From a bacterium (lineage in GTDB: Bacteria; SAR324; NAC60-12): a DNA stretch of 64,000 nucleotides. Under the pieces are notes generated by a model. That model did not search any database, was not told where the DNA came from, and saw only the letters and a list, made by a program, of their open reading frames with translations. The position numbers and the translations under genes are program-made. This document shows positions 5,308-62,866 of this stretch, piece by piece (position 1 is the stretch's first letter; every line of letters begins with the position of its first letter). Location: the NCBI GenBank assembly GCA_965233585.1, contig CBDDTI010000746.1, positions 576,001 to 640,000 of the forward strand, written 5' to 3'.

Positions 5308-5692
5308 GTCATTGCGGGCTTGACACAGAATCTCAAAAACAAAAGGAGATTGCGGGTCAAGCCCGCAATGACGGAGGAAGTGAGGAAATTAGAGAAAAAT
5401 GAAGACATTCTTTGTCATTCCGTCTCTCCCTCAGTCATTCCGCACTTGATGCGGAATCTATCAGCAAACCAAGCATAGATTCCTAACGTGACTGGATTCC
5501 TGACCCTGTTTTCACAGGGGGGACGTTCTTTCGCTCCGAATGACAATAGTTGTCATTGCGGGCTTGACCCGCAATCTCAAAAACCCTCTGTCATTCCGCA
5601 CTTGATGCGGAATCTCAAAAGAAGAATGCAAACACAATGAGAAAAAACAAAAGAAGAACAAGAGTGAGATTGCGGGTCAAGCCCGCAATAAC
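5308..5692. repeat. Cluster of at least six REP-like palindromes, consensus GTCATT(G/C)CG-N7/8-CG(C/G)AATCTC, in both orientations
   Basis: Copies at 5308-5334, 5346-5372 (rc), 5434-5459, 5552-5578, 5590-5616 and 5666-5692 (rc), between convergent genes. Confidence 0.9.
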
Positions 5693-5720: not shown

Positions 5721-8700
5721 TTATTGTGGGAACTGGACGTCATCAATCCAGACGGCATCGCTTCCTTCGCTGTCGGAACTGTCCTTCTTGTAGCACCATT
5801 TGAAGGTGTGGCTTCCAGCAGAGACGTTGAAACTGGCTTGCTTCCAAGCAATCGTTCCGCTTTTGCCTCCCAGCTTTTCTGAAGACCCGATGTAAAAGAA
5901 GAGTTTGTCATACCTTCGTTCTGAACTCACTTTGTAGTGAAACTTGATTTGTCCGTCTGAAACGGTTTGAGTCGTTTGGACACAAGTTTCTTGATTGTTC
6001 CCAATGCTTGCAGACTTAAGGCTTTTGGAACTGCCACTTGCACCACCAGAGACCACCGACCAGTTGCCACTCAAACCACTAGGCTTTTTATTGTCCTCAA
6101 AACTCCAAATTTGAGAAGACGGAGGACCAAATGCCCAAACATCGTTTTTGTTACTTCCGCCATATCCTCCCGTGACCCAGATTTTGTTATTGAACACAAC
6201 GCTGGTGTGGGTATGCCTTCTTGACCAGCCTGCTGAATCAGTGACCTTTGTCCAATTCTTGCCATCAACACTACTCCAAACATCGTTGTTGTAGGGACCT
6301 CCTCCCCCCCCGATGACCCAGATTTTGTTATTGAAGACGACGCTGGTGTGTTCATACCTGCTTGACCAGCCTGCTGAATCAGTGACCTTTGCCCAATTCT
6401 TGCCATCAACACTACTCCAAACATCGTTTTTGTAACTTCCGTCATATCCCCCGATGACCCAGATTTTGTTATTGAAGACGACGTTGGTGTGTCCATACCT
6501 GCTTGACCAGCCTGCTGCATCAGTGACTTTTGTCCAGTTTTTACCATCAGAAGAACTCCACACATCGTTTTTGTAACTTCTGTCATTTCCCCCGATGACC
6601 CAGATTTTGTTATTGAAGACGACGCTGTTGTGTCCATACCTGCTTGACCAGCCTGCTGAACTTGTGATCTTTGTCCAATTCTTGCCATCAGAAGAACTCC
6701 AAACATCGTTTTTGCGCCTTCCGTCATATCCCCCCATGACCCAGATTTTGTTATTGAAGACGACGCTGGTGTAATTATCCCTCCTTGACCAGCCTGCTGA
6801 ACTTGTGATCTTTGTCCAATTCTTGCCATCAGAAGAACTCCAAACTTCGTTTGAAAAAGGATAACCTCCGCCCATGATCCAGAGTTTATTTTGAAACACC
6901 ACAGAGGTATGACCAGCTCTTTTTGACCAGCCTGTGTTGTCATTGGGTTTGATTTCTTTCCAAGTGAATTTTGAGATGTCATGGGAGGCAGCAGAAGAGT
7001 CTGGAAAGTTGACTTGGTCAATCCAAGCGGCATCGTCTCCTCTACTGAGAGCATAGTCTTTTTTGTAGCACCATTTGAAGGTGTGGCTTCCTGCAGAGAC
7101 AGCATAGCTGGCTTGTGTCCAGCCGATGTTTCCACTTTTGCCTCCTAGCTTTTCAGCAGAGTCAATGTAGAAGAAGAGTTCGTCATAATTTTGTTCTGAA
7201 CTGACTTTGTATTGAAATTCCACGTCTCCTGCCGAGACATTGCGTGTCGTTTGAACACAAGCCTGTTGATTGCTACTGATGTTTGCAGATTTGAGGCTTT
7301 TGGAAGTGCTGTTTGCCCCACCAGAGACAACAGACCAGTTGCCTGTTAAGCCATTTGGCTTGTTGCCGTTGTCAAAGTTCCAAGTGACTGCTTGGCTGAC
7401 AGCAGGGGCTTTTTGAGCAATGTCTTGGTCATAGCAAGCCCAGTCTGAAGCAGGAGTGTTGCCTGAGGCTTTGACACGAACGCACAGCTTGTCTTTGGCA
7501 ATGGCATCATCACCAAAACTAAAGGGGCTGTTGCAGTTGGTTTTGGTTGTGCCTGCATCTTTGGAACATTCATAGCTGTTGCCTGAAGTCATGTTAAAGG
7601 TCAGGCTTCTAGCAGAGACAGCAAGCGCAGTTGGTGCATTAGGTGCTGTGCTGACAGCAGTGCTTGTCTGGTAAGGACTCCAATCTCCGTCATCATCTTT
7701 GGCACGAATGCGGAAAGTGTAGCTGGTGGCAGGTTGCAGCGATTGAAAGGTGTATGCCGTGTCAGTTGTGGTGCTTGTGCCTGACCAGAATCCATTGCCT
7801 GTTTTGTAAGAGATTTCGTAGCCTGACACCTGTCCATCGGAATCTGTGGCTGCAGTCCATGAGACTTTGATGCTGTCTGCAGTGACATCGCTGGTGCTGA
7901 TGTTGCTGGGTTTTTCAGGTGGTTTGTTGGCAGCAGGAAGCGTCTGGACAGGCTTGCTTTCTTCATAATCACTCCAAGCATTTTCATCATCTTTGGCACG
8001 GACACGAAAGGTGTAGCTGGTGTCAGGTTGCAAACCAGAGACGATGACGTTTGTTTGAGTGGTGTCTGTGCCGACTTGCCAGTTTCCGTTGCCTGTTTTG
8101 TGAGAGACCTCATAACCTGTCACTTCACCATCAGGGTCTGCAGAAGGTGACCAACTTAACTGCAAACTATTAGAGGTCACTTGGCTAATCTTCAAGTCTT
8201 CTGGCTTCTCTGGCTCTTGATTCTTCGCAACAACAGCATTGACCAAGTCCTTCGTCAGCGTCAAATTCTTGTTCAATGTAAACTTCAAGTTGGTGTTTTT
8301 GTCCAGCTGAAAAGGCTTACTCCGAATCAAAGTTTGACCTGTGTCTAAACTGACCACAGAAAAGAAGAAGTCATTAGCATTCCCGTTAGGATAATGCCTT
8401 CCGTTGACTAAAATCATCTTGAAATTGCTATCGTCCTTGTTCAAATCTGGACAACTGCATTCTACATTAAATAATGCCTCATCGCTGTTTCTCACGGTCA
8501 GCATCACATCTTGGTCAGAAGAGTTGAGAAAGTTGATTTTTGCCACGCTCAAGACTTGTTGTTTGGGAATGATGATGCGTTTTTTGTCATCTTTGTTAAA
8601 GACTAGATTCTTCACAAGAACAGGGTTTTGGAAGTCAATCTCCCCTGAATCTTTGTGCGAATAAAACATCAGCAGGCTAGCACCGACAGGAATCTTGATT

Positions 8701-9419
8701 TGATAGTTCAGTTCCTTGCTGGCAATGACGCCAATTTGCTGATTCTGCGAACTGCCTTGAAAAATAGACACCTTCTCATCACGATTGTTTCGCACCATCA
8801 ACATGCCATAGTCTGAATTGGACTCCTCAGTGCCTATCACAAAACTGGATTTGGCTGATGGAATGAACCCACTTTGCATAAAAGCCGTTGGCATTTGGGA
8901 ATCCTCGCAGTCTGCTTTAAAATAGTCTTGCACGGCTGGCATCTTGAAGGCGAACACGGTGACGATGGAACTCGTTCTTTTGGAAATGTCCACCTTGACC
9001 CCTTTCTGCTTGGCGCCAATGACAGCAATCACATCGTCAGTATTTAGATTACTGGAATACGAAAGCAGGACATCGGTATTGAGTGAATTGAAGATGGCAA
9101 GATTGCCTGTGCCTTGCGTCAGGGCTTTGGGAATCTCCAGACACACCGACTCGCCTGACTCTTGTTCTTGCGTCGCAGCGGTGTGTTTGGCTGACACTGA
9201 CACAGCACCATCTTCACCGCAGCCAATCAAAACACTGAAGCACAGCAGAAGCGAACATTTTTTTAAGAATGTTGAGGGTTTGAGGAACGATGCCAGAATC
9301 TTTTTGACATCAATCTCCTTTCTGTTTTTCAAGAAGGAGGGTTGAGGGAACGATGCCAAAGCATCAGTGCAGGACACAACTGCTTGGGAAAACATGTTGA
9401 TTGTACGAAATGCAAACAT
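5721..9419 (-). CDS. Large modular surface lipoprotein: unknown N-terminal region, 2 Fn3 domains, beta-sandwich module, 6 Kelch-like repeats, second beta-sandwich module
   Basis: Lipobox VLIG-C; Fn3 motifs (LQPDTSYTFRVRA, LQPATSYTFRIRA); 47-aa repeats VFNNKIWVIGG...NDVWSSxDGKNW; duplicated YKVSSE...HTFKWCYKKD...WID module. Start at ATG 9419 (GGAG 8 nt upstream) is uncertain. Confidence 0.85.
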   Translation of the reverse strand: MFAFRTINMFSQAVVSCTDALASFPQPSFLKNRKEIDVKKILASFLKPSTFLKKCSLLLCFSVLIGCGEDGAVSVSAKHTAATQEQESGESVCLEIPKALTQGTGNLAIFNSLNTDVLLSYSSNLNTDDVIAVIGAKQKGVKVDISKRTSSIVTVFAFKMPAVQDYFKADCEDSQMPTAFMQSGFIPSAKSSFVIGTEESNSDYGMLMVRNNRDEKVSIFQGSSQNQQIGVIASKELNYQIKIPVGASLLMFYSHKDSGEIDFQNPVLVKNLVFNKDDKKRIIIPKQQVLSVAKINFLNSSDQDVMLTVRNSDEALFNVECSCPDLNKDDSNFKMILVNGRHYPNGNANDFFFSVVSLDTGQTLIRSKPFQLDKNTNLKFTLNKNLTLTKDLVNAVVAKNQEPEKPEDLKISQVTSNSLQLSWSPSADPDGEVTGYEVSHKTGNGNWQVGTDTTQTNVIVSGLQPDTSYTFRVRAKDDENAWSDYEESKPVQTLPAANKPPEKPSNISTSDVTADSIKVSWTAATDSDGQVSGYEISYKTGNGFWSGTSTTTDTAYTFQSLQPATSYTFRIRAKDDDGDWSPYQTSTAVSTAPNAPTALAVSARSLTFNMTSGNSYECSKDAGTTKTNCNSPFSFGDDAIAKDKLCVRVKASGNTPASDWACYDQDIAQKAPAVSQAVTWNFDNGNKPNGLTGNWSVVSGGANSTSKSLKSANISSNQQACVQTTRNVSAGDVEFQYKVSSEQNYDELFFYIDSAEKLGGKSGNIGWTQASYAVSAGSHTFKWCYKKDYALSRGDDAAWIDQVNFPDSSAASHDISKFTWKEIKPNDNTGWSKRAGHTSVVFQNKLWIMGGGYPFSNEVWSSSDGKNWTKITSSAGWSRRDNYTSVVFNNKIWVMGGYDGRRKNDVWSSSDGKNWTKITSSAGWSSRYGHNSVVFNNKIWVIGGNDRSYKNDVWSSSDGKNWTKVTDAAGWSSRYGHTNVVFNNKIWVIGGYDGSYKNDVWSSVDGKNWAKVTDSAGWSSRYEHTSVVFNNKIWVIGGGGGPYNNDVWSSVDGKNWTKVTDSAGWSRRHTHTSVVFNNKIWVTGGYGGSNKNDVWAFGPPSSQIWSFEDNKKPSGLSGNWSVVSGGASGSSKSLKSASIGNNQETCVQTTQTVSDGQIKFHYKVSSERRYDKLFFYIGSSEKLGGKSGTIAWKQASFNVSAGSHTFKWCYKKDSSDSEGSDAVWIDDVQFPQ
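6130..6960 (-). repeat. Six tandem ~141-bp Kelch-like coding repeats
   Basis: The ccaaacatcgtt-type motif recurs every 141 nt (about 6135, 6276, 6417, 6558, 6699, 6840). Confidence 0.9.
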
Positions 9420-9440
9420 CTGATTAACTCCATGAGAGGT

Positions 9441-9580
9441 GAAACAAAACAACAGCACCCCCTGCGGGTGCTGTCATACGAAAAACTCTCCTCTTGAAAT
9501 GAAAACCTCATTTGTTTTCAAGATGAGAGTTTTGCGAAAAGCCAAAACGGGCATTATGCACGTACAAAAAAAAAAAACAA
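9441..9580 (-). promoter_or_regulatory. Putative sigma70 promoter (TTGTTT-16 nt-CATAAT) with T12 tract, then a structured leader (long hairpin plus terminator-like hairpin)
   Basis: -10 at 9553-9558; -35 at 9575-9580; stem 9482-9533; hairpin ACAGCACCC/GGGTGCTGT at 9452-9474 followed by a U-rich tail; near-identical copy at 62969-63103. Confidence 0.65.
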
Positions 9581-18628: not shown

Positions 18629-18686
18629 GCTTGACACAGAATCTCAAAAACAAATAGTGAGATTGCGGGTCAAGGTGAGCAATGAC
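18629..18686. repeat. Inverted pair of REP-like palindromes (first copy truncated)
   Basis: GCTTGACACAGAATCTCAAAAACAAA...GAGATTGCGGGTCAAG...GCAATGAC, closely matching 5318-5372. Confidence 0.85.
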
Positions 18687-46323: not shown

Positions 46324-47217
46324 CTAGCAAGATTGAAGAAAACGATGGACTTGGATTTGATAACGTTTTTTGTAAGAACTGACTACTCCTTCCACACAGA
46401 GTTTTGCAGATTTTTTGGCAAGTAGAACCCAAAGCGGTAGTGGTTTGAATGACACCGTCCGAATCGGAAGTTTGGGATTCTGTAACGAAATCAATGTCAC
46501 ACCATTTGAAAGAGACTGTTGCTTGAGTAACAAACCCCTGACACGAATAAATTTGTTTTTAAAGCGAGAAAGTTTGATTTTTTTTGCATGTAGAGTTTTG
46601 GAATGATAGATGGAATTTTTTGAGGACATGACTGTTTTTTGCTCCTTAAATAGCCTTTTCAAGTAGCTCTTTCTTAATTTGGAACTCTTCCAGATTCCTC
46701 GTTTTTTATCAAATGCCATTCGCTCTGCTTTGATGTAAATTTTCTCATTTTCAGGACGTTGGAATCTGGTGTCAAAATAGCTGTAACCTTGTTGAATTAA
46801 GGCTAAATTGACCAACCTGTTACGAGACACCAAAAGACCAAGCATTCTGTGATAAGAACCGTAGAGGTTGTTTGGATTGACTGATAATTTCAGCTGGGAA
46901 CGTTGAAGCTCTTTTTCTAAAAACGCTTTGGCTAACATTCCATATTGGCGGTTTGTTCCTTTGTGAGAGGCAGAAAGCTCTGGAGTGTCCACATAAAGCA
47001 GACGCACGACTTCCGTTTTTGAAAAAGACCCATCTTGATTCAAATCTACTTTGAATGTATCGCCATCAATGACTTCACGCTTCATCTCAGAAATGTCAAC
47101 ATGTTCCCATTGATGAGCCAGAACAATTTGACCCAAGAGACAGATGACCAAGAAGGCAAAATAAGGCATCGTTTTAAGCCAAGTAAGGAACTTCTTGATG
47201 CAAAATTGCTTGTTCAT
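46324..47217 (-). CDS. Thermonuclease (staphylococcal nuclease) family protein with probable C-terminal OB-fold
   Basis: VIDGDT, VRLLYVDTPE, YGSYHRML, VNLALIQQG and RGIW motifs. True start may be 47169. Confidence 0.82.
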   Translation of the reverse strand: MNKQFCIKKFLTWLKTMPYFAFLVICLLGQIVLAHQWEHVDISEMKREVIDGDTFKVDLNQDGSFSKTEVVRLLYVDTPELSASHKGTNRQYGMLAKAFLEKELQRSQLKLSVNPNNLYGSYHRMLGLLVSRNRLVNLALIQQGYSYFDTRFQRPENEKIYIKAERMAFDKKRGIWKSSKLRKSYLKRLFKEQKTVMSSKNSIYHSKTLHAKKIKLSRFKNKFIRVRGLLLKQQSLSNGVTLISLQNPKLPIRTVSFKPLPLWVLLAKKSAKLCVEGVVSSYKKRYQIQVHRFLQSC

Positions 47218-49513
47218 CTTCTGTCAAAATATATTCTATTTTGAGCGCATCAATCAATTTTTGGTTGTCATCAATATTCAAAACTTCAGGGTCTTCAAAT
47301 CCCAGTAACATTTTTAAAATTCTTACAAAGATCACTCTGGGTGTTTCTATGGTGCGGGCAGAAATTCGTAAATACATCTCCTGCCCATTATTGTTAAACT
47401 GACGAGTTTCTGGACAGAACGGAATCTTTTCAGAATTGCTTGTGTAATATCCATAGGGCAAGAACTTCATCTCTGCAAAAGAAAGCAAAAACTCCATCGC
47501 AGTATCACTAACTCCAAGATTAGCTAGGTAGTAATTTTCTTTAAAGGGAGCTTCAGGGTCATATTGTTCTAAAAGATGGTCTAAATAGTTAAAAAACGTA
47601 TGTGGCTTTTCTAAAATCTCCAAAATACCCAATGCTCTTTCTGATGCGAGATGATGACAAACACGTTTCAAGTTGTATAAAATCTCTGGCTGGAAAGGGA
47701 GATAAGGACTTTGCGTCACTTTCTTCTGTTTGGCATTGAGCTTGAGCTTGGGGGAGTCTTTCTTTTCATCAGTCTGGTTGATGCCTTCTATCTCAGCAGT
47801 GTTTAAAGGATCGGCTTCTTGTTCTTCTTCTTTTGACAAACCTGCTGTCACAGACTTCACTCTTGACTTTTCTAGCATCGGCTGAATCCAACGATCATAA
47901 TCTTGCTCAAAACGATACATTTCAGAAAGCTCATCTGTCAAAAGGTCATCTATAAACCACTCCAAACGCAAGACCATTTTCCATTTTTTTTGTAAATACG
48001 TTAAACGGATTTTGAGACTTTTTTCTACATGGTCTTGAAGGTCTTCCAAACTGCATTCATCAGGGAGTTGCTGATAAAATGCCTTCAAGAAAAAAATCTC
48101 CTGCAACACACTTTGACGCCTCAAGAGAACGACATGAATTTGTGTGCTAATCTGTTCTACGTCTTCTTGGGAGGCTAATGCCTCAAAGGCTTCGCTTGGT
48201 GATTCAAAAGACTCAAAAGACCCCACAGTGTATCGGTGAAACGATTTGAGGTAGTTGTTTAGCATCGTCTCAATTTGACTCAACTCAGATGCAAAATTTT
48301 GAGACATTTGAGATGTCATTTTGGGAAGGAGGGTAGATTTGACCAATGCTTGTTCTACTGTGGTCGCAGACTCTTGCCACGATTGCACAAGATTGATGCT
48401 TCTTTCCACCAACTTTCTGGAGGCTGTCACTGTTTTTTGTAGAAACTCCCATGACGCCCCTGAAAACTCCAAAGACCTCCAAATCTTGCCTATCAAAATT
48501 TGCAAATCCACCATGAATGCTCCCAATTTGACAATGTCTTCCTCCCATTTTTTAAAAACAGAGCTGAAGTAGTTAAGTTGTTTCTTTTCAAACTGAAGTA
48601 ACGCTTTGATTTTTTCATCTGACCAGTCTTCTGGCTTGGTCAGCTTCTTCTGAAGACGTGATTCAAAGAACTCGTAAGCCTCAAAAGAACAAAGCAGAGT
48701 ATCTATGTTGGTTCGCACCAAGTCAAAACGTCCTTTTTCCAAGAGCTGATAAGCACCTAAGGACTTGCCATGAGCTGGGTCAAAACGTGCAAGTTTGGCA
48801 GGCAACTTTTTGACATGTTGGAAGGCGTGAGCCAAGTCAAAATTGGGACAAAATGGTTGTTTCAAGAAGTCCAGACGTGCTGAATCAATGGTTTGGTTTA
48901 ACTCCCGTAATTGTGAAAAATATTGGTTCGCTTGGCTCATTTTGTCCCATGGCAAGCGTGAGAAGTGCTGCTGCTTGTCTTGCTGGTCTAAATCCTTGAC
49001 AAACGTTTCATGTTGTGTCACGAAGTTTAAAATCTGCCCTTGTAGGTCTTCATTGAGAATAGGAGACAAGTAGTATTGATCAGGCTTCTTGATGGCTTGT
49101 GTCAGCTTTTTCTTCTTTTGCCATGCCAAGTGGATAGAAGCATGAAGAGTGGAACCTGCTGCTTCAATCTCGTAATAGCCATTCTCCAAAGAAAGGTAAA
49201 TCCACTCAATGTAACGTTCTACCAAAGCAATGGATTGCAAATAATCATGACGATGCAACTCAAAGTGATGTTCACTTCGGCAGCTAGAGACCATGCGTTG
49301 TGTCATCTCATTGATCATTGCCAGACCTTGCACAACCTTCATCTGTGCATTGGCACAAATTGCGGGTTGTTCTTGCTTCAAAAACGAGCTGATCTGTGTG
49401 TTGCTCTTGGCAACTTTGTTGCGAATCTGGCTTAAAACGAATGGCAGCTTTCTCTGATGGTCTAATTCAGATTGGGTCTGCTTTAACTTGGCAATGAGTT
49501 TTTCTGTATTCAT
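47174..49513 (-). CDS. Large helical hypothetical protein (779 aa)
   Basis: Long uninterrupted ORF; no recognised motif. Confidence 0.7.
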   Translation of the reverse strand: MNTEKLIAKLKQTQSELDHQRKLPFVLSQIRNKVAKSNTQISSFLKQEQPAICANAQMKVVQGLAMINEMTQRMVSSCRSEHHFELHRHDYLQSIALVERYIEWIYLSLENGYYEIEAAGSTLHASIHLAWQKKKKLTQAIKKPDQYYLSPILNEDLQGQILNFVTQHETFVKDLDQQDKQQHFSRLPWDKMSQANQYFSQLRELNQTIDSARLDFLKQPFCPNFDLAHAFQHVKKLPAKLARFDPAHGKSLGAYQLLEKGRFDLVRTNIDTLLCSFEAYEFFESRLQKKLTKPEDWSDEKIKALLQFEKKQLNYFSSVFKKWEEDIVKLGAFMVDLQILIGKIWRSLEFSGASWEFLQKTVTASRKLVERSINLVQSWQESATTVEQALVKSTLLPKMTSQMSQNFASELSQIETMLNNYLKSFHRYTVGSFESFESPSEAFEALASQEDVEQISTQIHVVLLRRQSVLQEIFFLKAFYQQLPDECSLEDLQDHVEKSLKIRLTYLQKKWKMVLRLEWFIDDLLTDELSEMYRFEQDYDRWIQPMLEKSRVKSVTAGLSKEEEQEADPLNTAEIEGINQTDEKKDSPKLKLNAKQKKVTQSPYLPFQPEILYNLKRVCHHLASERALGILEILEKPHTFFNYLDHLLEQYDPEAPFKENYYLANLGVSDTAMEFLLSFAEMKFLPYGYYTSNSEKIPFCPETRQFNNNGQEMYLRISARTIETPRVIFVRILKMLLGFEDPEVLNIDDNQKLIDALKIEYILTEDEQAILHQEVPYLA

Positions 49514-49719: not shown

Positions 49720-51594
49720 ATGATACACACCATTCAATCGCCAGAGCAACTACATCACTTATCTTTGCAAGATCTTCAACAGCTCACTGAAGACTCCAGA
49801 GAACAAATTATTCGTGTCACAAGCCAAAAGGGAGGGCATCTTGCCTCTTCTCTTGGCACAGTGGAATTGACTGTGGCGCTGCTTCATGTGTTCAATCCTC
49901 ATCACGACAAAATTGTTTGGGACACAGGGCATCAGACGTATGCCTATAAAATCTTGACAGGACGCCATAAATCCTTTCACACTTTATCAGAAAAAGGAGG
50001 GATTAAAAAGTTTTTATCCATGCAAGAAAGTCCGCATGATCACTTTGGAGCAGGTCATGCCTCTACTGCCATTTCTGCTGGGCTTGGTATGGCAACAGCA
50101 CGTGATATGTTACAACAACAACACCATGTGGTTGCCATTTTGGGAGACGGTGCGCTCACAGGAGGCTTGAGCTTTGAAGCACTCAATCATAATGGAGCAT
50201 TGGCAAAAAATATGATTGTCATCCTCAATGACAATGGCATGAGCATTGACCCCAATGTTGGAGCCATCTCAAAAATGATCACCAAATTCACTGCCTCCAA
50301 AACCTACAACTTGGTACGTGATGAAGCGTGGCATTTATCCAAAAAAATGCCGTTCTCCTCTGCGTTACAGGAGTTGATGCACAAGTTTGAAGTCTCTACA
50401 AAAATGTTTTTTTCTCCAATGTTTTTGTTTGAACCTTTGGGCTGGCGTTATTTTGGTCCCGTAGATGGACATTCACTGAAGGGACTCATTGACTTGTTTT
50501 CTCATGTCAAAGATCTCAAAGGTCCCATTGTGATTCATGCACTGACACAAAAAGGCAAGGGATACCGCTTTGCAGAAGAAGACGCTTTTAAATATCATGG
50601 AGTGTCCCCGTTCATTCCTGACGATGGACAATTTATTGGGAAAGCGAAGCCCCAAAGTTACTCCAATCTGCTTGGTCAAGAGTTGGACAACATCATGGCT
50701 CAAGATGACAAAGTTTGTGTTATCAGTCCTGCTATGTTAAGTGGTTCAGGTATTTTTCATCTTTTGGAAAAATATCCTGAACGTATTTTTGATGTCGGCA
50801 TCGCAGAAGGACATGCCACAACTTTTGCGGCGGGGCTGGCGACTTCTGGCGTCAAGCCTTTTTTGGCAATTTACTCTACTTTCTTACAACGTTCCATTGA
50901 CAATGTCATCCATGACATCGCTTTGCAAAACCTGCCTGTCAAAATAATGATTGACCGTGCGGGGCTGGTTGGGGCTGATGGTCCAACACATCATGGCATC
51001 TTTGACCTGACTTATTTACGTATGATTCCGAACATGACCATTCTTGCTCCCAAAGATGGACCAGAATTGCAAGCGATGATTCAGTTTGCATACGAATATG
51101 AAGCAGGTCCCATCGCTGTCAGATACCCAAGAGGCAATGCCGTTTTTGACCGCCAGCTTAAAACACCAATTCAACTTGGAAAGAGTGTTGTAGAAAAAGA
51201 AGGCAAGGACGTGGTGATTTTGGCGGTTGGAACGTTGGTGAGTACGGCTTGGGAAGTAGTGGATTCTTTGACAGACAAAGGATACGATGCGGCACTGGTC
51301 AATGTGAGATTTATCAAACCATTAGACACTGATTTGATTCAAAAATTAGCAAAGCATGCCAAGTTGATTGTGACGATTGAAGAAAACACCATTTGCGGAG
51401 GCTTTGGTTCTGCTGTGTTAGAGTTCTTGAGTCAGCAATGCTTGACTCCTCAAACTCTCTTATTGGCTGTTCCTGATGAATTTATAGAGCAAGCCTCTCA
51501 AAAAGAACAACAAGAACAGTGTGGCTTGTCTGCCAATCGCATCTTACAAGCGATTCTTGCCAAAATTTCCACCTCTCATCACGTTGAAACATGA
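49720..51594 (+). CDS. dxs: 1-deoxy-D-xylulose-5-phosphate synthase
   Basis: GGHLASSLG, WDTGHQ, GDGA...LNDN, YSTFLQR and DRAGLVGADGPTHHG motifs. Confidence 0.97.
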   Translation: MIHTIQSPEQLHHLSLQDLQQLTEDSREQIIRVTSQKGGHLASSLGTVELTVALLHVFNPHHDKIVWDTGHQTYAYKILTGRHKSFHTLSEKGGIKKFLSMQESPHDHFGAGHASTAISAGLGMATARDMLQQQHHVVAILGDGALTGGLSFEALNHNGALAKNMIVILNDNGMSIDPNVGAISKMITKFTASKTYNLVRDEAWHLSKKMPFSSALQELMHKFEVSTKMFFSPMFLFEPLGWRYFGPVDGHSLKGLIDLFSHVKDLKGPIVIHALTQKGKGYRFAEEDAFKYHGVSPFIPDDGQFIGKAKPQSYSNLLGQELDNIMAQDDKVCVISPAMLSGSGIFHLLEKYPERIFDVGIAEGHATTFAAGLATSGVKPFLAIYSTFLQRSIDNVIHDIALQNLPVKIMIDRAGLVGADGPTHHGIFDLTYLRMIPNMTILAPKDGPELQAMIQFAYEYEAGPIAVRYPRGNAVFDRQLKTPIQLGKSVVEKEGKDVVILAVGTLVSTAWEVVDSLTDKGYDAALVNVRFIKPLDTDLIQKLAKHAKLIVTIEENTICGGFGSAVLEFLSQQCLTPQTLLLAVPDEFIEQASQKEQQEQCGLSANRILQAILAKISTSHHVET

Positions 51595-56054: not shown

Positions 56055-56999
56055 ATGCAAGCCTGTTATCTTTGCTCAAACCCTTTGCCACAGGGGCAGT
56101 CGTTTTATCAAGACCACAGCAAGTTTGTCTGCCTCCAATGTTTCAAAGACTCACCACGTTGCAAAAAATGCAAATTCCCTTCTAAACAACTTGCCATTGC
56201 TCATTACTGGGGCATGGTCTGCGAGTTTTGCCAAGAAGAACTGAACAAATCCATTGGCTCATGTCAGCTTTGTCAAGCAGAAATCACCATCTCTGCTTCC
56301 CATTATGCAGACGCAGGCAGGCTTGTTTGCCAAAAATGCTTTATCGTTGCCAAAAGATGCTTCATCTGTGCCTTCCCTCAATCTGCTCAAACCATTGCAG
56401 GCTTTGGGGACGTCTGCCCTGACTGTCTTGACCCCTTGTTCAGCCCTCAATCTGACTTGTCTGCAGTGACCCAACCCATTCTTAAATTTCTGGCAAGCCT
56501 CAAAGTTTCTGTTGACACTGTCCCCCAAATCAAATGGGTGGATTGGAATCTCTTGCTTGGCATGCAACACAAAGAACGTCCACCTTGTCCTATCAAAAGA
56601 CTTGATGATTTCTTACGATACGCCTACCCCGTCTTTTACCTGAAAGGCACACTTTACACGTTGAAACGTATGACGCCTTCTTTGCTTCTGACTCACATTT
56701 CGGGGCAACTGGCAGCTGCTCAACTCTGTTCACAATATCAACTCCCTCACCTGCTAGATGACTCCCCTTTTTTTGAGCTTGCCCGCTCCTGGGTTCACTG
56801 GGTGTCTTACACCACTGCACAAATTCTCAAATACGAAAAAGAGCAAAAACTACTCACCAGCCGACCCGAATGGGTTCTCAAAGACTTCAAAAAACTACAA
56901 GCCATGTCTCAATTCAATCCTCCTACCAAAATCGTCCTTTACGCACACTCCACTCTTGCCAACTACGCCAAAAAATATCTTTTCCCTCCTCTTTCATAA
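56055..56999 (+). CDS. Multi-CxxC (LIM-like) zinc-finger protein with DA1-like C-terminal domain
   Basis: Eight CxxC pairs in the first ~125 aa; the C-terminal domain lacks HExxH. Confidence 0.6.
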   Translation: MQACYLCSNPLPQGQSFYQDHSKFVCLQCFKDSPRCKKCKFPSKQLAIAHYWGMVCEFCQEELNKSIGSCQLCQAEITISASHYADAGRLVCQKCFIVAKRCFICAFPQSAQTIAGFGDVCPDCLDPLFSPQSDLSAVTQPILKFLASLKVSVDTVPQIKWVDWNLLLGMQHKERPPCPIKRLDDFLRYAYPVFYLKGTLYTLKRMTPSLLLTHISGQLAAAQLCSQYQLPHLLDDSPFFELARSWVHWVSYTTAQILKYEKEQKLLTSRPEWVLKDFKKLQAMSQFNPPTKIVLYAHSTLANYAKKYLFPPLS

Positions 57000-57122
57000 C
57001 GCCAACCAAACAACAAACCTTTGAACAAAGATTGAAAAAGATTGAGAACAGCAGAATTTTCGTTTTATGATGATGATAACGATTGACTTATTTGATGATT
57101 TTAATTTTTAAGGAGTTATGTG

Positions 57123-57365
57123 ATGAGTATGACATTAAATTTTGAAGCAGATCATGCTTTGAAGGTCTCAAAAAATGAAACCCAAAACATGAAGAAAACA
57201 ATTTTAGAAATCAAAGAACAGATTAGACAGAAAAAAACAGAAAAGAAAGATTATGATTTAGTTTCTATGGTGGGTATAGGGAGGCATTGTAGTTCTTTTG
57301 AAAAAGGAACAATGGACGAAATAGATCAGTATATTCGTGAACTAAGGAGCGAATGGAAAGATTAG
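57123..57365 (+). CDS. Putative antitoxin
   Basis: AAGGAG RBS; small ORF ending YIRELRSEW that overlaps the PIN gene. Confidence 0.7.
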   Translation: MSMTLNFEADHALKVSKNETQNMKKTILEIKEQIRQKKTEKKDYDLVSMVGIGRHCSSFEKGTMDEIDQYIRELRSEWKD

Positions 57366-57784
57366 AAAATAAATTATATTTTGATGCAAACATTTTTATA
57401 TATGCGATTGAGGGAAATGCGTTTTTGCAACAATCTTTAAAAGATTTCTTAGATTTTGTGTCTCGCCAGATTGAGATAATTGTTACAAGCGAACTGACCC
57501 TTGCAGAATGTCTAGTTTTACCTAGAAGGAATGATAATAAGTATTTACAAAGCATGTATTTAGACGCTCTTATTAAAAATAGAAAAGTTTCTTTAAAAAA
57601 TGTTGATATTGCAACATGGTTATTGGCTTCAGATATAAGGGCAAAATATAACTTTCACCTTCCAGATTCAGTACACATCGCAACAGCCATTTTAAACGAC
57701 TGTTCTTTGATGACAAATGATAAGAAGTTGAAAGGTGTAGAAGGGTTGAAAATTTTCTATTTAGATGACTTCTTACAGTCATAA
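57353..57784 (+). CDS. PIN-domain (VapC-like) toxin
   Basis: YFDANIFIY, ELTLAEC, LPDSVHIATA and MTNDKKL acidic PIN motifs. Confidence 0.88.
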   Translation: MERLENKLYFDANIFIYAIEGNAFLQQSLKDFLDFVSRQIEIIVTSELTLAECLVLPRRNDNKYLQSMYLDALIKNRKVSLKNVDIATWLLASDIRAKYNFHLPDSVHIATAILNDCSLMTNDKKLKGVEGLKIFYLDDFLQS

Positions 57785-57837: not shown

Positions 57838-58045
57838 AACCAAGTGAGCAATCGGTGTGTTGGACAACAGTCAAAAAATACAACCTCAAACAAGAATCTT
57901 TGGCATGAACCAACTGAAAATAGGTTGATGAGCTAGCACACAAACAAGCCGCTTGAAGTCCCATAAAAACAGGTAAGCAACGCAAAAGACAGATGCTACA
58001 ACCACCACATTTCAAACTCCATTAGTAAAAAAACGAAAAAAAAGC

Positions 58046-58074
58046 TTGTGTAACTTTTAAAAGGTTTTTACAAT
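58046..58074 (+). promoter_or_regulatory. Putative sigma70 promoter
   Basis: TTGTGT-17 nt-TACAAT preceded by A-tracts. Confidence 0.55.
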
Positions 58075-58083
58075 ATATTGTTT

Positions 58084-58268
58084 TTCTGACTACGTCAAGA
58101 ATGGTCTTGGCAGAGTTCAGGATTAAATGACACATGACTCCTTTTGATCTGGGGCGTCGTGTGTGTTCTTTCATTCGTTTGTCCAGTTTTGTCAGGAATG
58201 GTCTTGGCAGAAATCTGGATTAAATGACGCATGACTCCTTTTGATCTGGGGTGTTGTGTGTGTTCTTT
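58084..58268 (+). ncRNA. Tandem pair of structured leader RNA units (unknown family)
   Basis: 78-nt cores at 58094-58171 and 58191-58268 differ at 7 positions; outer stem shows three compensatory base-pair changes. Confidence 0.7.
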
Positions 58269-58294
58269 AACCATAACTAAAATGAGGATAACCT

Positions 58295-61200
58295 ATGAAT
58301 CTTTTAAAAAGATTTGCACAAATTGCTGCGATTGGACTTGCTGGAGGTTTGATTGCCGCATGTAGTAGTGACAGCTCGTCAAGCAGTAGCAGCAGTGACG
58401 ACGACAAAGCCAGCACCCCAGCTACCACAACCGGAGGAGGCGGAAGCACTTCAAAAGGAGGCAGTGACGCCTTCCCAAGAGTCTCCTTTGCCCCAGGTTC
58501 CACTGATGCCAACAACAAATGTAACGGCTTTGGTGGAATCAAAGCAGAAATAGAAGGCTCTAGTCCCCAAGCCTTTGAATACTTCTGTGATTATGACTTC
58601 CAACATAACTTCACTAAAAACCTAAATGGTGGTGGCGACGATTCCCCACTGGAACCTGAAAACATCAATGCCACGTCTGACAAAATCTTCTTCAACTACA
58701 ATGATGAAGGAAAAAACCAAGTCGGGCTTGTTCAAGATGGTGATGCCAACAGCGCCATTGATTTTGATGACCTTAGCGATGGCACAGTCGCTGGTTTTTA
58801 CAGAACAACCGCCAGCTCCGATGATGATAAAAGGCTCTATATCAGGGTTGACGTTGATGGTGCAGGTGCAGAAACAGTAGAAAGTCTTTACTACATTGAT
58901 GAGTCAGTTTCTCCTAGAAAAGCTGTCCCTGTTAGCGACGTTCCTCACATTCAGGCTGCTAATAATAAAGTCTTTGTAGCAGATTCAGGGGTATTTGTTG
59001 TGCAAGCTGATGGAGGTGTTTATTCAGTGGGTGGAACAGATGGAGTCACAGTCACCACTCATACCTACGCTGCTATTACTGGGCTTGACACAGGAGATAT
59101 TGCAGTAGGTGCGGGAACAACAGACCTTGCAAAAGTTCAAGGTGATACTTTGTATCTGCCACTGGACAATGCAGGTGGTGCTGCAACTGCTCTAGACGCA
59201 GATTCTCTCGGCATTTTTACTCATGGAACAGCCGCAGTTGCAACAAGCAGTGATATCAACACAGCATGGGCTGGCGATGAAAATAAAGCCTTGTTTGTCG
59301 CAGACTCAGGAATCTTTGTTGTTTCTACTGATGACGATGTTTACTCATTAGACGGAGCAACATTGACCACTCATACCTATGGCGATATAGGCAGCCTTGC
59401 CTCAGCAGATGTTGCAGTGGGTGCAGGAACAACAGGACTTGCAAAGGTGAAAGGCGATACCTTGTATCTTCCACTAGACGACGCAGGTGGTGCTGCAACT
59501 GCTCTAGACGCAGATTCTCTCGGTGCTTTCAAACATGGAACAGCAGCAGCGGAAGATGTTGCAGATATTACTACTGCATGGGATGGAACTGAAGCCAAAG
59601 CCTTGTTTGTAGCAGGTTCAGGAATCTTTGTTGTTTCTACTGATGACCAAGTTTATTCGGTTGCAGTGAGTGACTCAAATGTTGCCACAGTGACCACTCA
59701 TACCTACGCTGCTATTACTGGGCTTGGCTCTGCAGATATTGCAGTAGGGGCAGGGACAACGGGGCTTGCAAAGGTGCAGGATGACACTTTGTATCTTCCA
59801 TTAGACAATGCAAATGGTGCTGCAACTGCTCAAGATGCGGATTCTCTCGGTATTTTCGCTCATGGAACAGCAGCAGTTGCAACAAGTAGTATCAATACTG
59901 CGTGGGGTGGAGACGAAGATAAAGCCTTATTTGTAGCAGGTTCAGGAATCTTTGTTGTTTCTACTGATGATAATGTCTATTCAGTGGCAGTGGACGACTC
60001 AAATGTTCCAACAGTAACCACCCATACCTACGTTGCTATTACTGGGCTTGGCTCTGCAGATATTGCAGTAGGGGCAGGAACAACAGGGCTTGCAAAGGTG
60101 AAAGGTGATACTTTGTATCTTCCACTAGACAACGCAGGTGGTGCTGCAACTACCCAAGATGCAGACTCACTCGGCATTTTCACTCATGGAACAGCAGCAG
60201 TTGCTACAAACGCCGCTGTCAATACAGCATGGGCTGGAGATGAAGATAAAGACGTTCTCGTTACAGAAAATGGTGTCTTTGTTGTTTCTGATGAGGATGG
60301 CATTTATTACTTCAGACCTGGAAGTTCAGGAGCAAACGTCACAGGCATCATTGATGCGGCAGATGTTGATAAGGATAATTTCAAAGTGGCAAAGGCAGCC
60401 AAAGGAGCATTAAGCAACTACGCTTTTCACGAAAGTGCAATGATTCTTGGGACTAACCCTGCAGTTGCTTTGAATGAAATCGCCATCTCTGCTGACCAAT
60501 TTGTTCAAACCACCAACGGCAACACTTACTTCACAATCAATGGAAACTTTGACACAGGTCTTTATGCTCATGGAGTGACTGACACAATAGGCATCAGACC
60601 AGCAGTCACAGGCTCTGCAATCAATGCAACCGCAGTCGCTGCCAACGGCAATGATGTTTACTTCTCCACAGCAGATAACTTGTTCAGTTTCAGTGCAATC
60701 GCAACGACTCATGGTGGTTCCGTAACTGACGTCAGCGTCATCTCTGCTCCAACAACGACAACAAGTTCTGCTGTTGATAAAAACAAAAACCTTGAAAAAT
60801 TGGTCTTTGTAGAAGACCAGCTTTATGCACTCAAGAGCAATAAGGTTTACGCATTGAATGACACAGGTGAACTGGATGAAGTACAAACTGATGACGAAAC
60901 TCCAGCAAGTATCTCTGTCAATTCTATCCATCAAGTTGGAGACCAGTTGATTGCAGTGGGGTCAAGTAACGTGTATTCCATTTCTGGCGACGACCCAGCC
61001 GCAACAGAAATTGAAAACACGACTGGAGACACTCCAGCCTCTCTCACTGGCGCAAAATGGGTCGCTGTTGCAGGAGATGTGTTGTTTTTCAATACTGGCG
61101 ATAACAATCTCTGGTTAACTCAAGGTGATTCAGACTCTACCAAACCAGTGAGGAGAAATGGCAATAACGTGACGTGGAATTTAACTGCACAAGATAACAA

Positions 61201-61567
61201 AGCAGTCCAGTCTGGCGATGACTACTACACTCTTTGGAATGGCTTCTTGTATTGGGTGAACGAAAGCACAGGAGTTGCTGTAAGAGCCTCTACAACGAAT
61301 AGGGAGCTTGGCACAGAATCTGTTCAAGGACTCATAGCACTCAAAGTAGGTGATGCCGATGCGATTGCTATCACGACCAGATCAGGTGCTGTTAAAGTCT
61401 TGGTTGGTTGGAAAGGCAAACCAAACAATAAGTTTGTCAATGTGAATACTGGTGGAACTTGGAACACTGCCAAGCCATACTTTGTTGGTGATAGACTTTA
61501 CTTCACAGGCAAAAATGGTCTAGGCATTGAATGGTATTACTTGCAAAAAACGATACCATCTAATTAG
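58295..61567 (+). CDS. Large acidic surface lipoprotein with four ~106-aa tandem repeats and beta-propeller-like (ELWxxDGT-like) flanks
   Basis: GAGGA RBS; lipobox LIAA-C; Ser/Thr/Gly linker; NLWLTQGDSDSTKPV and GDRLYFTG motifs. Confidence 0.85.
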   Translation: MNLLKRFAQIAAIGLAGGLIAACSSDSSSSSSSSDDDKASTPATTTGGGGSTSKGGSDAFPRVSFAPGSTDANNKCNGFGGIKAEIEGSSPQAFEYFCDYDFQHNFTKNLNGGGDDSPLEPENINATSDKIFFNYNDEGKNQVGLVQDGDANSAIDFDDLSDGTVAGFYRTTASSDDDKRLYIRVDVDGAGAETVESLYYIDESVSPRKAVPVSDVPHIQAANNKVFVADSGVFVVQADGGVYSVGGTDGVTVTTHTYAAITGLDTGDIAVGAGTTDLAKVQGDTLYLPLDNAGGAATALDADSLGIFTHGTAAVATSSDINTAWAGDENKALFVADSGIFVVSTDDDVYSLDGATLTTHTYGDIGSLASADVAVGAGTTGLAKVKGDTLYLPLDDAGGAATALDADSLGAFKHGTAAAEDVADITTAWDGTEAKALFVAGSGIFVVSTDDQVYSVAVSDSNVATVTTHTYAAITGLGSADIAVGAGTTGLAKVQDDTLYLPLDNANGAATAQDADSLGIFAHGTAAVATSSINTAWGGDEDKALFVAGSGIFVVSTDDNVYSVAVDDSNVPTVTTHTYVAITGLGSADIAVGAGTTGLAKVKGDTLYLPLDNAGGAATTQDADSLGIFTHGTAAVATNAAVNTAWAGDEDKDVLVTENGVFVVSDEDGIYYFRPGSSGANVTGIIDAADVDKDNFKVAKAAKGALSNYAFHESAMILGTNPAVALNEIAISADQFVQTTNGNTYFTINGNFDTGLYAHGVTDTIGIRPAVTGSAINATAVAANGNDVYFSTADNLFSFSAIATTHGGSVTDVSVISAPTTTTSSAVDKNKNLEKLVFVEDQLYALKSNKVYALNDTGELDEVQTDDETPASISVNSIHQVGDQLIAVGSSNVYSISGDDPAATEIENTTGDTPASLTGAKWVAVAGDVLFFNTGDNNLWLTQGDSDSTKPVRRNGNNVTWNLTAQDNKAVQSGDDYYTLWNGFLYWVNESTGVAVRASTTNRELGTESVQGLIALKVGDADAIAITTRSGAVKVLVGWKGKPNNKFVNVNTGGTWNTAKPYFVGDRLYFTGKNGLGIEWYYLQKTIPSN
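58963..60300 (+). repeat. Four tandem 312-327 bp coding repeats plus the start of a fifth
   Basis: Units start at about 58963, 59282, 59593, 59917 and 60244. Confidence 0.9.
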
Positions 61568-61684
61568 TCGTTGACCCTTCTTTTTTAACCTTTTTTACGA
61601 CCTTCTTTTGTCTTTCTCTCACAGCGGAGGAAGGCAACCCGAGAAGGTTGCAACCTTCTTTCACGTCATTGTCGACGTGTCTAA

Positions 61685-61880
61685 GTCATTGCGGGACCTG
61701 ACCCGCAATCTCCCTCGTCTTCTTCCCAACAACGCCTTTTTTTGAGATTCCGCATCAAGTGCGGAATGACTGAGAGGTTTTGTAGGCGTGTCTTTCCGTC
61801 ATTGCTTACCTTGCCCCGCAATCTCCCTTGTCTTTTTCTCAACAACTCCTTTTTTTGAGATTCCGTGTTCCCCCGTCATT
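61685..61880. repeat. REP-like palindrome cluster, left of the IS
   Basis: Copies at 61685-61712, 61744-61770 (rc), 61798-61825 and a partial copy from 61857. Confidence 0.88.
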
Positions 61881-62652
61881 GGCAGTGTTCACTTGATATT
61901 GGCATGATATTTTTCAAACCTTTTATAGTCAAAGAAGAGTTGTAGAGAGTGTTCCAGCATGTCCAAAGTTTTAGAATGTCGTTTAGATTTTCTCATCAAG
62001 CGAGCTAGGTTATCTCTGATGGAAGAATTAGAAGATTCAATGAGATGAGTCTTTTTTTGCCTATTTCGTGGTTCTCTGGAATTTGTCATTGAGCAAATGC
62101 CACTTGATAGCATGAGTTGGCATCGGTATAGATCGTCTTCATTCTAGGTCGCTGTTCTTTGACTAGTGCATACAGCTTTCGCACAGCTACTAATCCTTTG
62201 CCTATCACAAAGGCAATCACACATTGTTCTTGACGAGAATAGGCTGTCCAAACAGCTACTCTTTGGCTTTTTTTTGAACAAAAGTGTAGATCTCATCCAT
62301 CTCTATACTATCTACTTGTACATGGAAACTTGGTGCGTCTTTTGGAAGTTGAGACACTCTAGCTTTTTTGATCCAGTTGACAATTGAAGCGGGAGACACC
62401 TGCAAAAAACGAGCGATCTTTCTGATGCCTACACTATTGACATACATCTCTAAGGCTTGACGCTTTGTCTCTAGTGGGATTCTCAAACCATTTGAGGTGA
62501 ATGCTCTCTGACATGACTTGCAACGATACCTCTGAACCCCTTTGTAACTTCCATTCTTGATATAAGTCTGACTCCCACAATGATGACAACTTCTCATTTC
62601 CATTCCTCAAATTCACTCTCACATGCAATGACAATACCAACTAAACACTGCC
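61881..62652 (-). mobile_element. IS1-family insertion sequence, 772 bp, probably inactive
   Basis: Terminal IRs GGCAGTGTTCACTTGATATTGGCAT / GGCAGTGTTTAGTTGGTATTGTCAT; 8-bp target duplication CCGTCATT (61873-61880, 62653-62660); InsA-like zinc finger plus HTH and InsB-like DDE segments. Confidence 0.92.
61889..62603 (-). pseudogene. IS1 transposase (InsA-InsB) with programmed -1 frameshift site plus disabling lesions
   Basis: CHHC...QRYRCKSC and EMDEIYTFVQKK; A8G slip at 62268-62275; -1 frame reads RVAVWTAY...IYTDANSCY; in-frame TGA at 62086-62088; a second frameshift precedes THLIESSNSSIRDNLARL. Confidence 0.85.
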
Positions 62653-62654
62653 CC

Positions 62655-62866
62655 GTCATTGCGGGACCTGACCCGCAATCTCTCTTGTTTTCTATCCGCG
62701 TCATCGCTCACCTTGAAAACCGTCATTGCTCACCTTGTCCGCCATCTCATCCTTCTTAAAACACATGACAAACTTGGGTTTGTCCCTACGTTGTGACCTG
62801 ATGGCTTGCCTTTTCGTCATGGTTTACTTTAAAAACCGTCATTGCTCAACTTGATTCCACAATCTG
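62655..62866 (+). repeat. REP-like palindrome cluster, right of the IS
   Basis: 62655-62682 is identical to 61685-61712; degenerate copies at about 62700-62748 and 62838-62866. Confidence 0.85.

Follow-up and report, generated by a model that had tools for sequence, protein, structure and literature searches.

Several described RNAs frame the locus presented here. The 5' untranslated region (5' UTR) of ompA in Escherichia coli acts in cis on the decay of its messenger RNA (mRNA), a precedent treated in a passage of the review PMC7509114, which cites Emory, Bouvet and Belasco (1992) and Arnold, Yu and Belasco (1998). Pseudo-cooperative tandem riboswitches, as a part of PMC9481103 describes them, place two whole riboswitches of a single class in series, each with a terminator of its own; near-identical units in series, with a variable outer stem and then a hairpin with a U-rich tail, recur in our sequence. 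In type III toxin-antitoxin systems, the antitoxin consists of multiple RNA repeats (according to a passage in PMC8860590). The element considered here lies in a window of 64,000 nucleotides (nt) from a bacterium of the SAR324 lineage (NAC60-12; assembly GCA_965233585.1, contig CBDDTI010000746.1, positions 576,001 to 640,000; all coordinates below refer to this window), where two near-identical RNA-coding units stand in tandem directly upstream of a gene for a large lipoprotein (P0001; features in Table 1). This two-copy, single-genome module, which is not recorded in Rfam, probably belongs to the broad kind of structured 5' leaders. As to its function, our tentative proposal is a cis-acting leader which affects the stability or processing of the mRNA and thereby resembles the ompA 5' UTR rather than a metabolite sensor.

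An earlier note on this DNA had reported two near-identical units of 78 nt, and they are indeed present: the cores 58094-58171 and 58191-58268 are 91% identical, with a start-to-start period of 97 nt. These direct repeats occupy the interval that separates an A-rich tract upstream from the GAGGA/ATG of the open reading frame (ORF) 58295-61567, and the second unit ends 26 nt before the ATG. In an ungapped alignment, the homology of the two units reaches upstream to about 58075/58172 (5/9 identical) and stops downstream at 58171/58268; from these limits, a tandem duplication of the 97-nt segment ~58075-58171 can therefore be deduced, and this segment starts just past a candidate -10 box. Neither blastn-short nor nhmmer nor an unfiltered search with a covariance model revealed a third copy in the 64-kb window, and two control patterns drawn from the core each matched only the two unit sites in the 64 kb. 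The covariance model, built from the two copies as had been proposed, recovered its own units (117 and 108 bits) but no further ones, the next match (19 bits) lying inside the dxs coding region.

The units had also been placed between a sigma70-like promoter and the ribosome-binding site (RBS). Their position before the RBS and the ATG is confirmed, but the promoter, although its sequence can be read at 58046-58074 behind an A-rich tract (58027-58045), stays below the scan threshold, as its -35 element agrees with the consensus in only 3 of 6 positions; a consensus scan of 58046-58300 listed no promoter or terminator on the plus strand. With 58074 as the last position of the predicted -10 box TACAAT, we infer a 5' end of the transcript just before the outer stem P1, with transcription starting at ~58080-58083 and crossing the whole region. 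P1 begins (58084) 10 nt past the end of the candidate, sub-threshold -10 box; a stabiliser of the ompA type has its stem-loop no more than a few unpaired nucleotides from the 5' end of the transcript.

Both units fold stably on the sense strand. The whole-unit minimum free energies (MFE) calculated with ViennaRNA are -32.3 kcal/mol for unit 1 and -32.8 kcal/mol for unit 2, with z-scores of -3.3 and -4.2, and for each unit only 1 of 200 dinucleotide shuffles folds equally well, while the opposite strand folds poorly (z -2.1 for unit 1, +0.25 for unit 2). The outer stem, the inner stem GUCA(A/G)GA-AUGG-UCUUGGC and the second hairpin, all noticed before, are found by ViennaRNA in both units; only the opening of the second hairpin at AUGAC (58127) could not be confirmed, since the MFE structure opens it at A58130 (ACACAUGAC...). 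On the ungapped alignment, 5 of the 28 pairs in unit 1 and 9 of the 25 paired cells in unit 2 are G·U pairs, and the fold therefore exists in the sense RNA only. Hairpin 1, which comprises the outer and the inner stem, has an energy of -15.0 kcal/mol in unit 1 and -18.8 kcal/mol in unit 2, and hairpin 2 of unit 1 reaches -17.5 kcal/mol with its flanks and -16.3 kcal/mol bare.

Within the full leader, the pair probability of hairpin 1 is 0.96-0.995 in unit 1 and 1.0 in unit 2, and the linker of unit 1 has a mean unpaired probability of 0.70. The RBS region (58280-58297; mean unpaired probability 0.64) lies outside the centroid fold and is open: the sole sign of sequestration of the Shine-Dalgarno (SD) motif was a helix of 6 bp which the SD forms with the tail of unit 2 in the MFE structure and which is missing from the centroid fold. 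In co-transcriptional snapshots, hairpin 1 is the first structure to form and has no competitor. A loop-to-tail pseudoknot (GAAUG/CAUUC in unit 1, AUGGU/ACCAU in unit 2) was considered and rejected, as shuffled tails equalled it in 1158 and 2617 of 20000 cases, respectively.

The divergence between the two units requires a more careful reading. Three compensated pairs in P1 had been put forward as covariation, and the letters cited for them (T58087/A58119 and A58185/T58216, A58089/T58116 and T58187/A58213, C58090/G58115 and T58188/A58212) all match the sequence. However, the three compensations emerge only if the 5' arm is shifted by 1 nt (offset +98, against +97 for the 3' arm). MAFFT and the Infernal covariance model both align the units without gaps, and on this alignment the double-sided changes shrink to 1 of 28 pairs (C58090-G58115 to U-A), accompanied by four pairs altered on one side to G·U and by three P1 cells which are unpaired in unit 2; ViennaRNA draws the P1 of unit 2 in a register shifted by one. 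The headline covariation depends on the alignment chosen. As a shuffle control for covariation (264/500) is uninformative with only two sequences, alignment-free tests were used instead.

When the 5' arm was shuffled, hairpin 1 folded at least as well in 804 of 5000 cases for unit 1 and in 34 of 5000 for unit 2; random 14-mers from the window in place of the arm gave a hairpin as stable or better in 502/5000 and 12/5000 cases, respectively. The P1 energy of unit 1 is thus within the range of chance. Exchange of the arms had asymmetric effects: when unit 2 received the 5' arm of unit 1, its hairpin 1 yielded -8.9 instead of the native -18.8 kcal/mol (a loss of 9.9), whereas unit 1 with the 5' arm of unit 2 still reached -14.0 instead of -15.0 kcal/mol (a loss of 1.0). 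Simulated descendants which had received 14 random substitutions matched the stability of the sister unit in 43 of 4000 cases with unit 1 as the ancestor and in 59 of 4000 with unit 2; if the substituted sites were kept and only the new bases drawn at random, the counts rose to 126 and 160 of 4000 for the descendants as a whole, and were 73 and 93 of 4000 for hairpin 1 alone. The differences themselves form a mosaic: the 5' segment is changed at 11 of 19 positions and the 3' arm of P1 at 3 of 9, compared with 4 of 69 elsewhere (Fisher 1.3e-5 and 0.03), and the four differences outside P1 consist of three Watson-Crick pairs turned into G·U and one bulge base. Of the selection on RNA structure claimed earlier, what can be upheld is retention of the fold, complementarity of P1 especially, at a level of roughly 1-4%, which is suggestive but not compelling; of the three-fold covariation only a part holds.

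These numbers leave room for a neutral or nearly neutral local duplication with chance inverted repeats, in which the compensation in P1 would stem from a template switch or from clustered mutation and the unit would serve no particular function. We regard this explanation as doubtful, yet it is the alternative which survives best. There are only two adjacent copies in one genome, the gene lies in a variable region with a vapBC-like module on one side and decayed IS1-like fragments on the other, a single compensatory pair is left on the ungapped alignment, 10-16% of random arms match or beat the P1 of unit 1, and the support for retained stability does not go beyond the 1-4% level. A single template-switch mutation suffices to make one arm of a stem the reverse complement of its partner (as stated in a passage of PMC8794818), and in unit 2 the outer part of P1 forms a perfect reverse-complement repeat of 5 bp, UCCAG/CUGGA, as would be expected from one such switch. 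On the other hand, uniform drift does not predict the mosaic distribution of the differences, all four changes outside P1 are neutral to the structure, and the z-scores of the fold speak against chance repeats. A wholesale conversion by template switch is further argued against because the bulged U and the wobble pairs have been kept, which such an event would not be expected to do.

If the module is instead a leader which acts in cis, once transcription has been initiated, on stability or processing, as we tentatively propose, 58080-58294 would constitute the ~215-nt 5' leader of the lipoprotein mRNA, which would have arisen through tandem duplication of the 97-nt segment. Each unit would fold locally on the sense strand during transcription. 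In unit 1, the long hairpin would start 1-4 nt from the predicted 5' end and would be followed by the 7-nt A/U strand and then by the bulged, G·U-rich hairpin with its U-rich tail, and the RBS downstream would be left open. The 5'-terminal stem-loop, together with the further hairpins, might shield the message from decay which depends on the 5' end, and hairpin 1 or the A/U linker could offer an entry for a double- or single-strand-specific RNase or for an RNA-binding protein. That the arms of P1 diverge fast and yet remain complementary can be counted in favour of a stability leader. A ligand sensor is argued against because hairpin 1 has no conserved internal loop and no significant switch helix was found.

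Several observations weigh against a stability leader and should be stated with equal clarity. Its 5' end is predicted from a weak promoter which the scan does not call. The loops, the linker and hairpin 2 are nearly invariant (4/69), which a pure stabiliser does not need and which hints at sequence-specific recognition or gene conversion, and the duplication brings no obvious gain to a stabiliser. Moreover, the equilibrium fold of the full leader swaps the hairpin-2 arms of the two units, at -75.0 kcal/mol against -65.7 kcal/mol for the local structure (9.3 better), and the swapped pairing has a probability of 0.84 compared with ~0.03 for the local hairpins. Both hairpin-2 loops (58144-58150 and 58241-58247) contain the palindrome GAUC and can pair with each other, which helps the swap. 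Arm swapping is to be expected of any tandemly duplicated hairpin; since it is favoured at equilibrium, the picture of four local hairpins needs kinetic trapping.

Table 1. Features of the leader and of the downstream gene (window coordinates)
Feature	Coordinates	Strand	Basis
Candidate sigma-70-type promoter, TTGTGT-17 nt-TACAAT	58046-58074	+	sequence reading
Unit 1 hairpin 1: P1 58084-58091/58114-58122 (bulged U), 2x2 loop AC/AG, P2 58094-58100/58105-58111, loop AUGG	58084-58122	+	MFE and centroid
Unit 1 linker UUAAAUG, A/U-rich, single-stranded	58123-58129	+	MFE; same sequence in both units
Unit 1 hairpin 2: 13 pairs, bulges U58139 and C58155, 7-nt loop UUGAUCU with palindrome GAUC	58130-58164	+	fold prediction
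Unit 1 tail GUUCUUU, end of conserved core, low tail score	58165-58171	+	sequence
Spacer CAUUCGUUU, homologous to 58075-58083 (5/9 identical)	58172-58180	+	alignment
Unit 2 hairpin 1: P1 and P2 stacked into one 17-pair helix, 2-nt bulge, loop AUGG	58181-58220	+	fold prediction
Unit 2 hairpin 2: architecture of unit 1 plus two extra G·U pairs	58227-58261	+	fold prediction
Unit 2 tail GUUCUUU	58262-58268	+	sequence
Unstructured A-rich stretch with Shine-Dalgarno GAGGA 58284-58288, 6 nt before ATG	58269-58294	+	sequence, pair probabilities
P0001, orphan 1090-aa lipoprotein: lipobox, Ser/Asp-rich linker after Cys, four tandem repeats of ~104-109 aa	58295-61567	+	

Rather unlikely, in our judgement, is a function of the units as tandem transcription attenuators, in which hairpin 2 and GUUCUUU would halt RNA polymerase unless a factor acts. 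The factor could be a protein bound to the linker, to hairpin 1 or to the loop of the latter; a small ligand is the less likely candidate. With two attenuators one after the other the response would become sharper, as it does in pseudo-cooperative tandem riboswitches. The layout agrees with this: each unit closes with a hairpin whose U-rich tail, with 5 U in 8 nt, is identical in both, and P1 is variable with the remainder of the unit conserved. In riboswitches, the aptamer core is likewise conserved and P1 variable. The GGAUUAA formed by the end of P1 and the linker can pair with the hairpin-2 loop UUGAUCU, and this pairing occurs transiently in the co-transcriptional folds. Independent tandem riboswitches with the same architecture are documented in the relevant part of PMC9481103, and very small aptamers embedded in terminators exist as well (mentioned in a section of PMC6478431).

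An intrinsic (Rho-independent) terminator has an uninterrupted stem rich in G+C with a U tract right behind it. As a terminator, hairpin 2 would be weak: its base beside the tail is rich in A-U and G·U pairs, it carries two bulges, the longest U run is 3, and the terminator scan does not call it. The discriminant of d'Aubenton-Carafa et al. (1990) gives -37 and -49, and as seven other hairpins listed by terminator scans of the window range from -70 to +1.7, this measure does not discriminate here. Tails just as poor follow the apparent gene-end hairpins of the window, such as the one at 61634-61651 after the stop codon of the lipoprotein gene, so weak U tracts may be normal in this genome. Altogether, the reading of hairpin 2 as an intrinsic terminator is weak. 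The sole antiterminator candidate, the 7-bp GGAUUAA/UUGAUCU, is much less stable than hairpin 2, and 2421 of 20000 shuffles produce its equal by chance.

The notion of a small-molecule riboswitch, raised in the earlier note, fares worse, as hairpin 1 is a plain stem-loop and has no multi-helix junction. The single internal loop which it has in unit 1 (AC/AG) gives way to base pairs in unit 2, and thus there is no conserved pocket, nor do the units match an Rfam family. P1 varies as it would around a riboswitch core, but what it encloses is this plain hairpin. To judge from the predicted structures, a metabolite-sensing aptamer is unlikely.

A broader proposal, which we consider improbable, would see in the module an undescribed class of tandem cis-regulatory RNA, whose units would be read-through switches responsive to a protein or a ligand. 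The variable P1 would then close a recognition hairpin, and the AUGG loop, the UUAAAUG linker and the GAUC loop would serve in recognition or in kissing contacts. The series of two units would allow sharp on/off control of the surface lipoprotein, and the GAUC loops and the swapped fold would belong to the switch. A switch recognised by a protein stays under consideration because a stabiliser alone leaves the near-invariance of loop, linker and hairpin 2 unexplained.

It is very unlikely that the units are sRNA-like modules freed by termination or processing, with the lipoprotein being expressed through read-through. Their layout does resemble that of Hfq-type small RNAs (sRNAs), the A/U linker of unit 1 is accessible, and the tandem arrangement recalls PrrF1/PrrF2 or NrsZ. 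However, unit 2 has no promoter of its own (none is listed on the plus strand, and the sequence before it belongs to the end of unit 1), the 26 nt between unit 2 and the ATG mean that the units must sit in the mRNA leader, and the terminator is weak.

Control by a leader peptide has a very small chance of being correct. It would rely on a mini-ORF of six codons, MTHDSF-stop (58127-58147 and 58224-58244; a GGA within the 3' arm of P1 precedes it by 4 nt), over the 5' arm and the loop of hairpin 2, which a translating ribosome would melt. The mini-ORF occurs in both units, the only difference being a synonymous ACA to ACG, and its start region falls within the accessible linker. Yet ORFs this short are common by chance, their conservation is trivial at 91% identity, and the synonymous change is equally explained by a change from A-U to G·U in the stem. 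In another mini-ORF, initiated in the loop, two of three changes are non-synonymous. The period of 97 nt is not a multiple of 3, and with mini-ORFs of 3-29 aa on the plus strand the region does not look like a protein-coding repeat either. Just as improbable is a role at the level of the DNA, with the repeats recombining or slipping so that copy number would vary the expression of the surface lipoprotein in the population; the presence of 78-nt direct repeats with 91% identity right before the gene of a surface protein, in surroundings which are mobile or variable, would suit it, but the sequence bears no sign of copy-number variation and the sense-strand-specific G·U pattern would be left unexplained. 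Sigma-54 and attC-like readings were considered by eye and dropped, as the motifs do not fit.

That the family would not be recognised had been anticipated, and Rfam 15 indeed gave 0 matches at the gathering score across the whole window. Relaxing the cut-off to E<=10 added nothing but noise: Pox_AX with 16.5 of 60 bits, located within the start of a coding sequence, and two snoRNA models with ~8 bits. A scan of 185,579 species genomes, a collection of which the genome of the window itself is not part, used a pattern anchored on the loops and the linker with the stems left free, which matches both units of the window; it returned 5 matches in unrelated phyla (~2 expected by chance), with no likeness or common fold beyond the anchors. 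With blastn, the leader found no match among plasmids and phages. A 59-aa ORF on the minus strand over the leader has neither an NCBIfam family nor a candidate homologue.

The 1090-amino-acid (aa) lipoprotein predicted downstream is confirmed by the N-terminal ...LAGGLIAAC lipobox, which can be read directly. Only two distant relatives (36% and 31% identity) are found among 1.84 billion representatives, and the lipobox Cys is invariant in both. P0001 has no sequence match in Pfam, NCBIfam or the PDB, its best score in an ESM Atlas search, 0.83, is below the level of evidence, and tblastn against plasmids gave no match. An SD motif is mostly missing in the 25 nt before the 42 large ORFs of the window which were checked, and P0001, the PIN-domain ORF and a few others have one. 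The clear SD of P0001, one of few in the window, fits a strongly expressed surface protein.

Upstream of the leader, pepN is located together with one unassigned ORF and a PIN-domain ORF (57353-57784, plus strand). The latter encodes 143 aa (Pfam E 9e-16) and overlaps the end of an 81-aa ORF without family (57120-57365); the two resemble a type II toxin-antitoxin pair of the vapBC kind and precede the leader by 300 nt. On the other side, immediately after the lipoprotein gene, the minus strand (61889-62603) bears short ORF fragments with sub-threshold similarity to the DDE domain of the IS1 transposase (E 0.003) and to HTH_Tnp_1 (E 0.0012); they look like a decayed insertion sequence, framed by hairpins which resemble repetitive extragenic palindromes (REP). 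The latter have the form GTCATTGCGGG-N6-CCCGCAAT(CTC) and occur on the plus strand at 61686-61712, 61798-61825 and 62655-62682; a weaker one lies at 18662-18683, and their 22-nt pattern has two exact and two 3-mismatch matches, against 0.13 expected. Half-sites CCGTCATTGCTCA(C/A)CTTG lie near 62720 and 62838, and a related hairpin copy with a 5-nt loop at 5349-5369 (minus strand) was listed by the terminator scan only. Elsewhere in the window, a 1245-aa protein with fibronectin-III and Kelch beta-propeller domains is encoded at 5721-9458 (minus strand), where a 12-pair hairpin (9449-9477) overlaps its GTG start and a 1.1-kb gap without large ORFs lies upstream. Two further ORFs, 47174-49513 (minus strand, 779 aa) and 56055-56999 (plus strand, 314 aa), have no Pfam or NCBIfam family. 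Dxs (49720-51594) has two relatives with 83-84% identity, whereas metagenome-assembled genomes (MAGs) of the SAR324 cluster reach at most 62%; since the named relatives do not exceed this value, the window comes from an uncultured lineage which is poorly sampled.

Should the leader be functional, it would give a first insight into post-transcriptional control within a lineage accessible only through metagenomes, exerted over a large orphan surface lipoprotein which may matter for the contact of the cell with its environment. General caution is nevertheless advisable, as two paralogous copies prove little: once the alignment was unbiased, a single pair was left of an apparently three-fold covariation, and the rest could be mimicked by a template switch. 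The module should hence be regarded as a candidate structured leader drawn from the comparison of two copies, and a new riboswitch or regulatory class is not demonstrated by it.

Among the known systems, some can be set apart by simple features. ANTAR targets comprise two small hairpins with hexanucleotide loops, and RAT is a hairpin overlapping the 5' arm of a terminator; here, the loops have 4 and 7 nt, and a 7-nt linker parts hairpin 1 from hairpin 2, so the two do not overlap. Hairpin 1, with its 15-17 pairs, its lower stem, small internal loop or bulge, and upper stem, resembles the hairpins processed by RNase III in phage or bacterial leaders, but it stays under the two helical turns typical of such sites, and the internal loop differs between the units. 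The PrrF1/PrrF2, NrsZ and RsmX arrays likewise have near-identical structured units ~90-100 nt apart which end in a hairpin and a U-rich tail, whereas unit 2 of our module has no promoter of its own and is followed by a start codon 26 nt downstream. The type III toxin-antitoxin systems (ToxI, CptI, TenpI) share tandem RNA repeats directly upstream of a gene and mobile-looking surroundings. The ToxI repeat, at 36 nt, is much shorter than the 97-nt unit, and the gene downstream encodes a secreted 1090-aa lipoprotein which belongs to no Pfam or NCBIfam family, so that there is no match to a ToxN-type endoribonuclease.

Compared with tandem riboswitches, the units have no junction, no conserved internal loop, no known class and no significant antiterminator, the terminator is weak, and the function of a lipoprotein gene gives no clue to a ligand. 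The 5' UTR of ompA differs in that there is no sequence similarity, that our module is duplicated and about twice as long, and that its 5' end is a predicted one. What the two have in common is the leader of an abundant envelope protein (in our case a presumed one), stem-loops split by A/U-rich single strands, an open RBS and, if the predicted 5' end is correct, a hairpin at or near it (as far as the ompA leader is described in the respective passage of PMC7509114).

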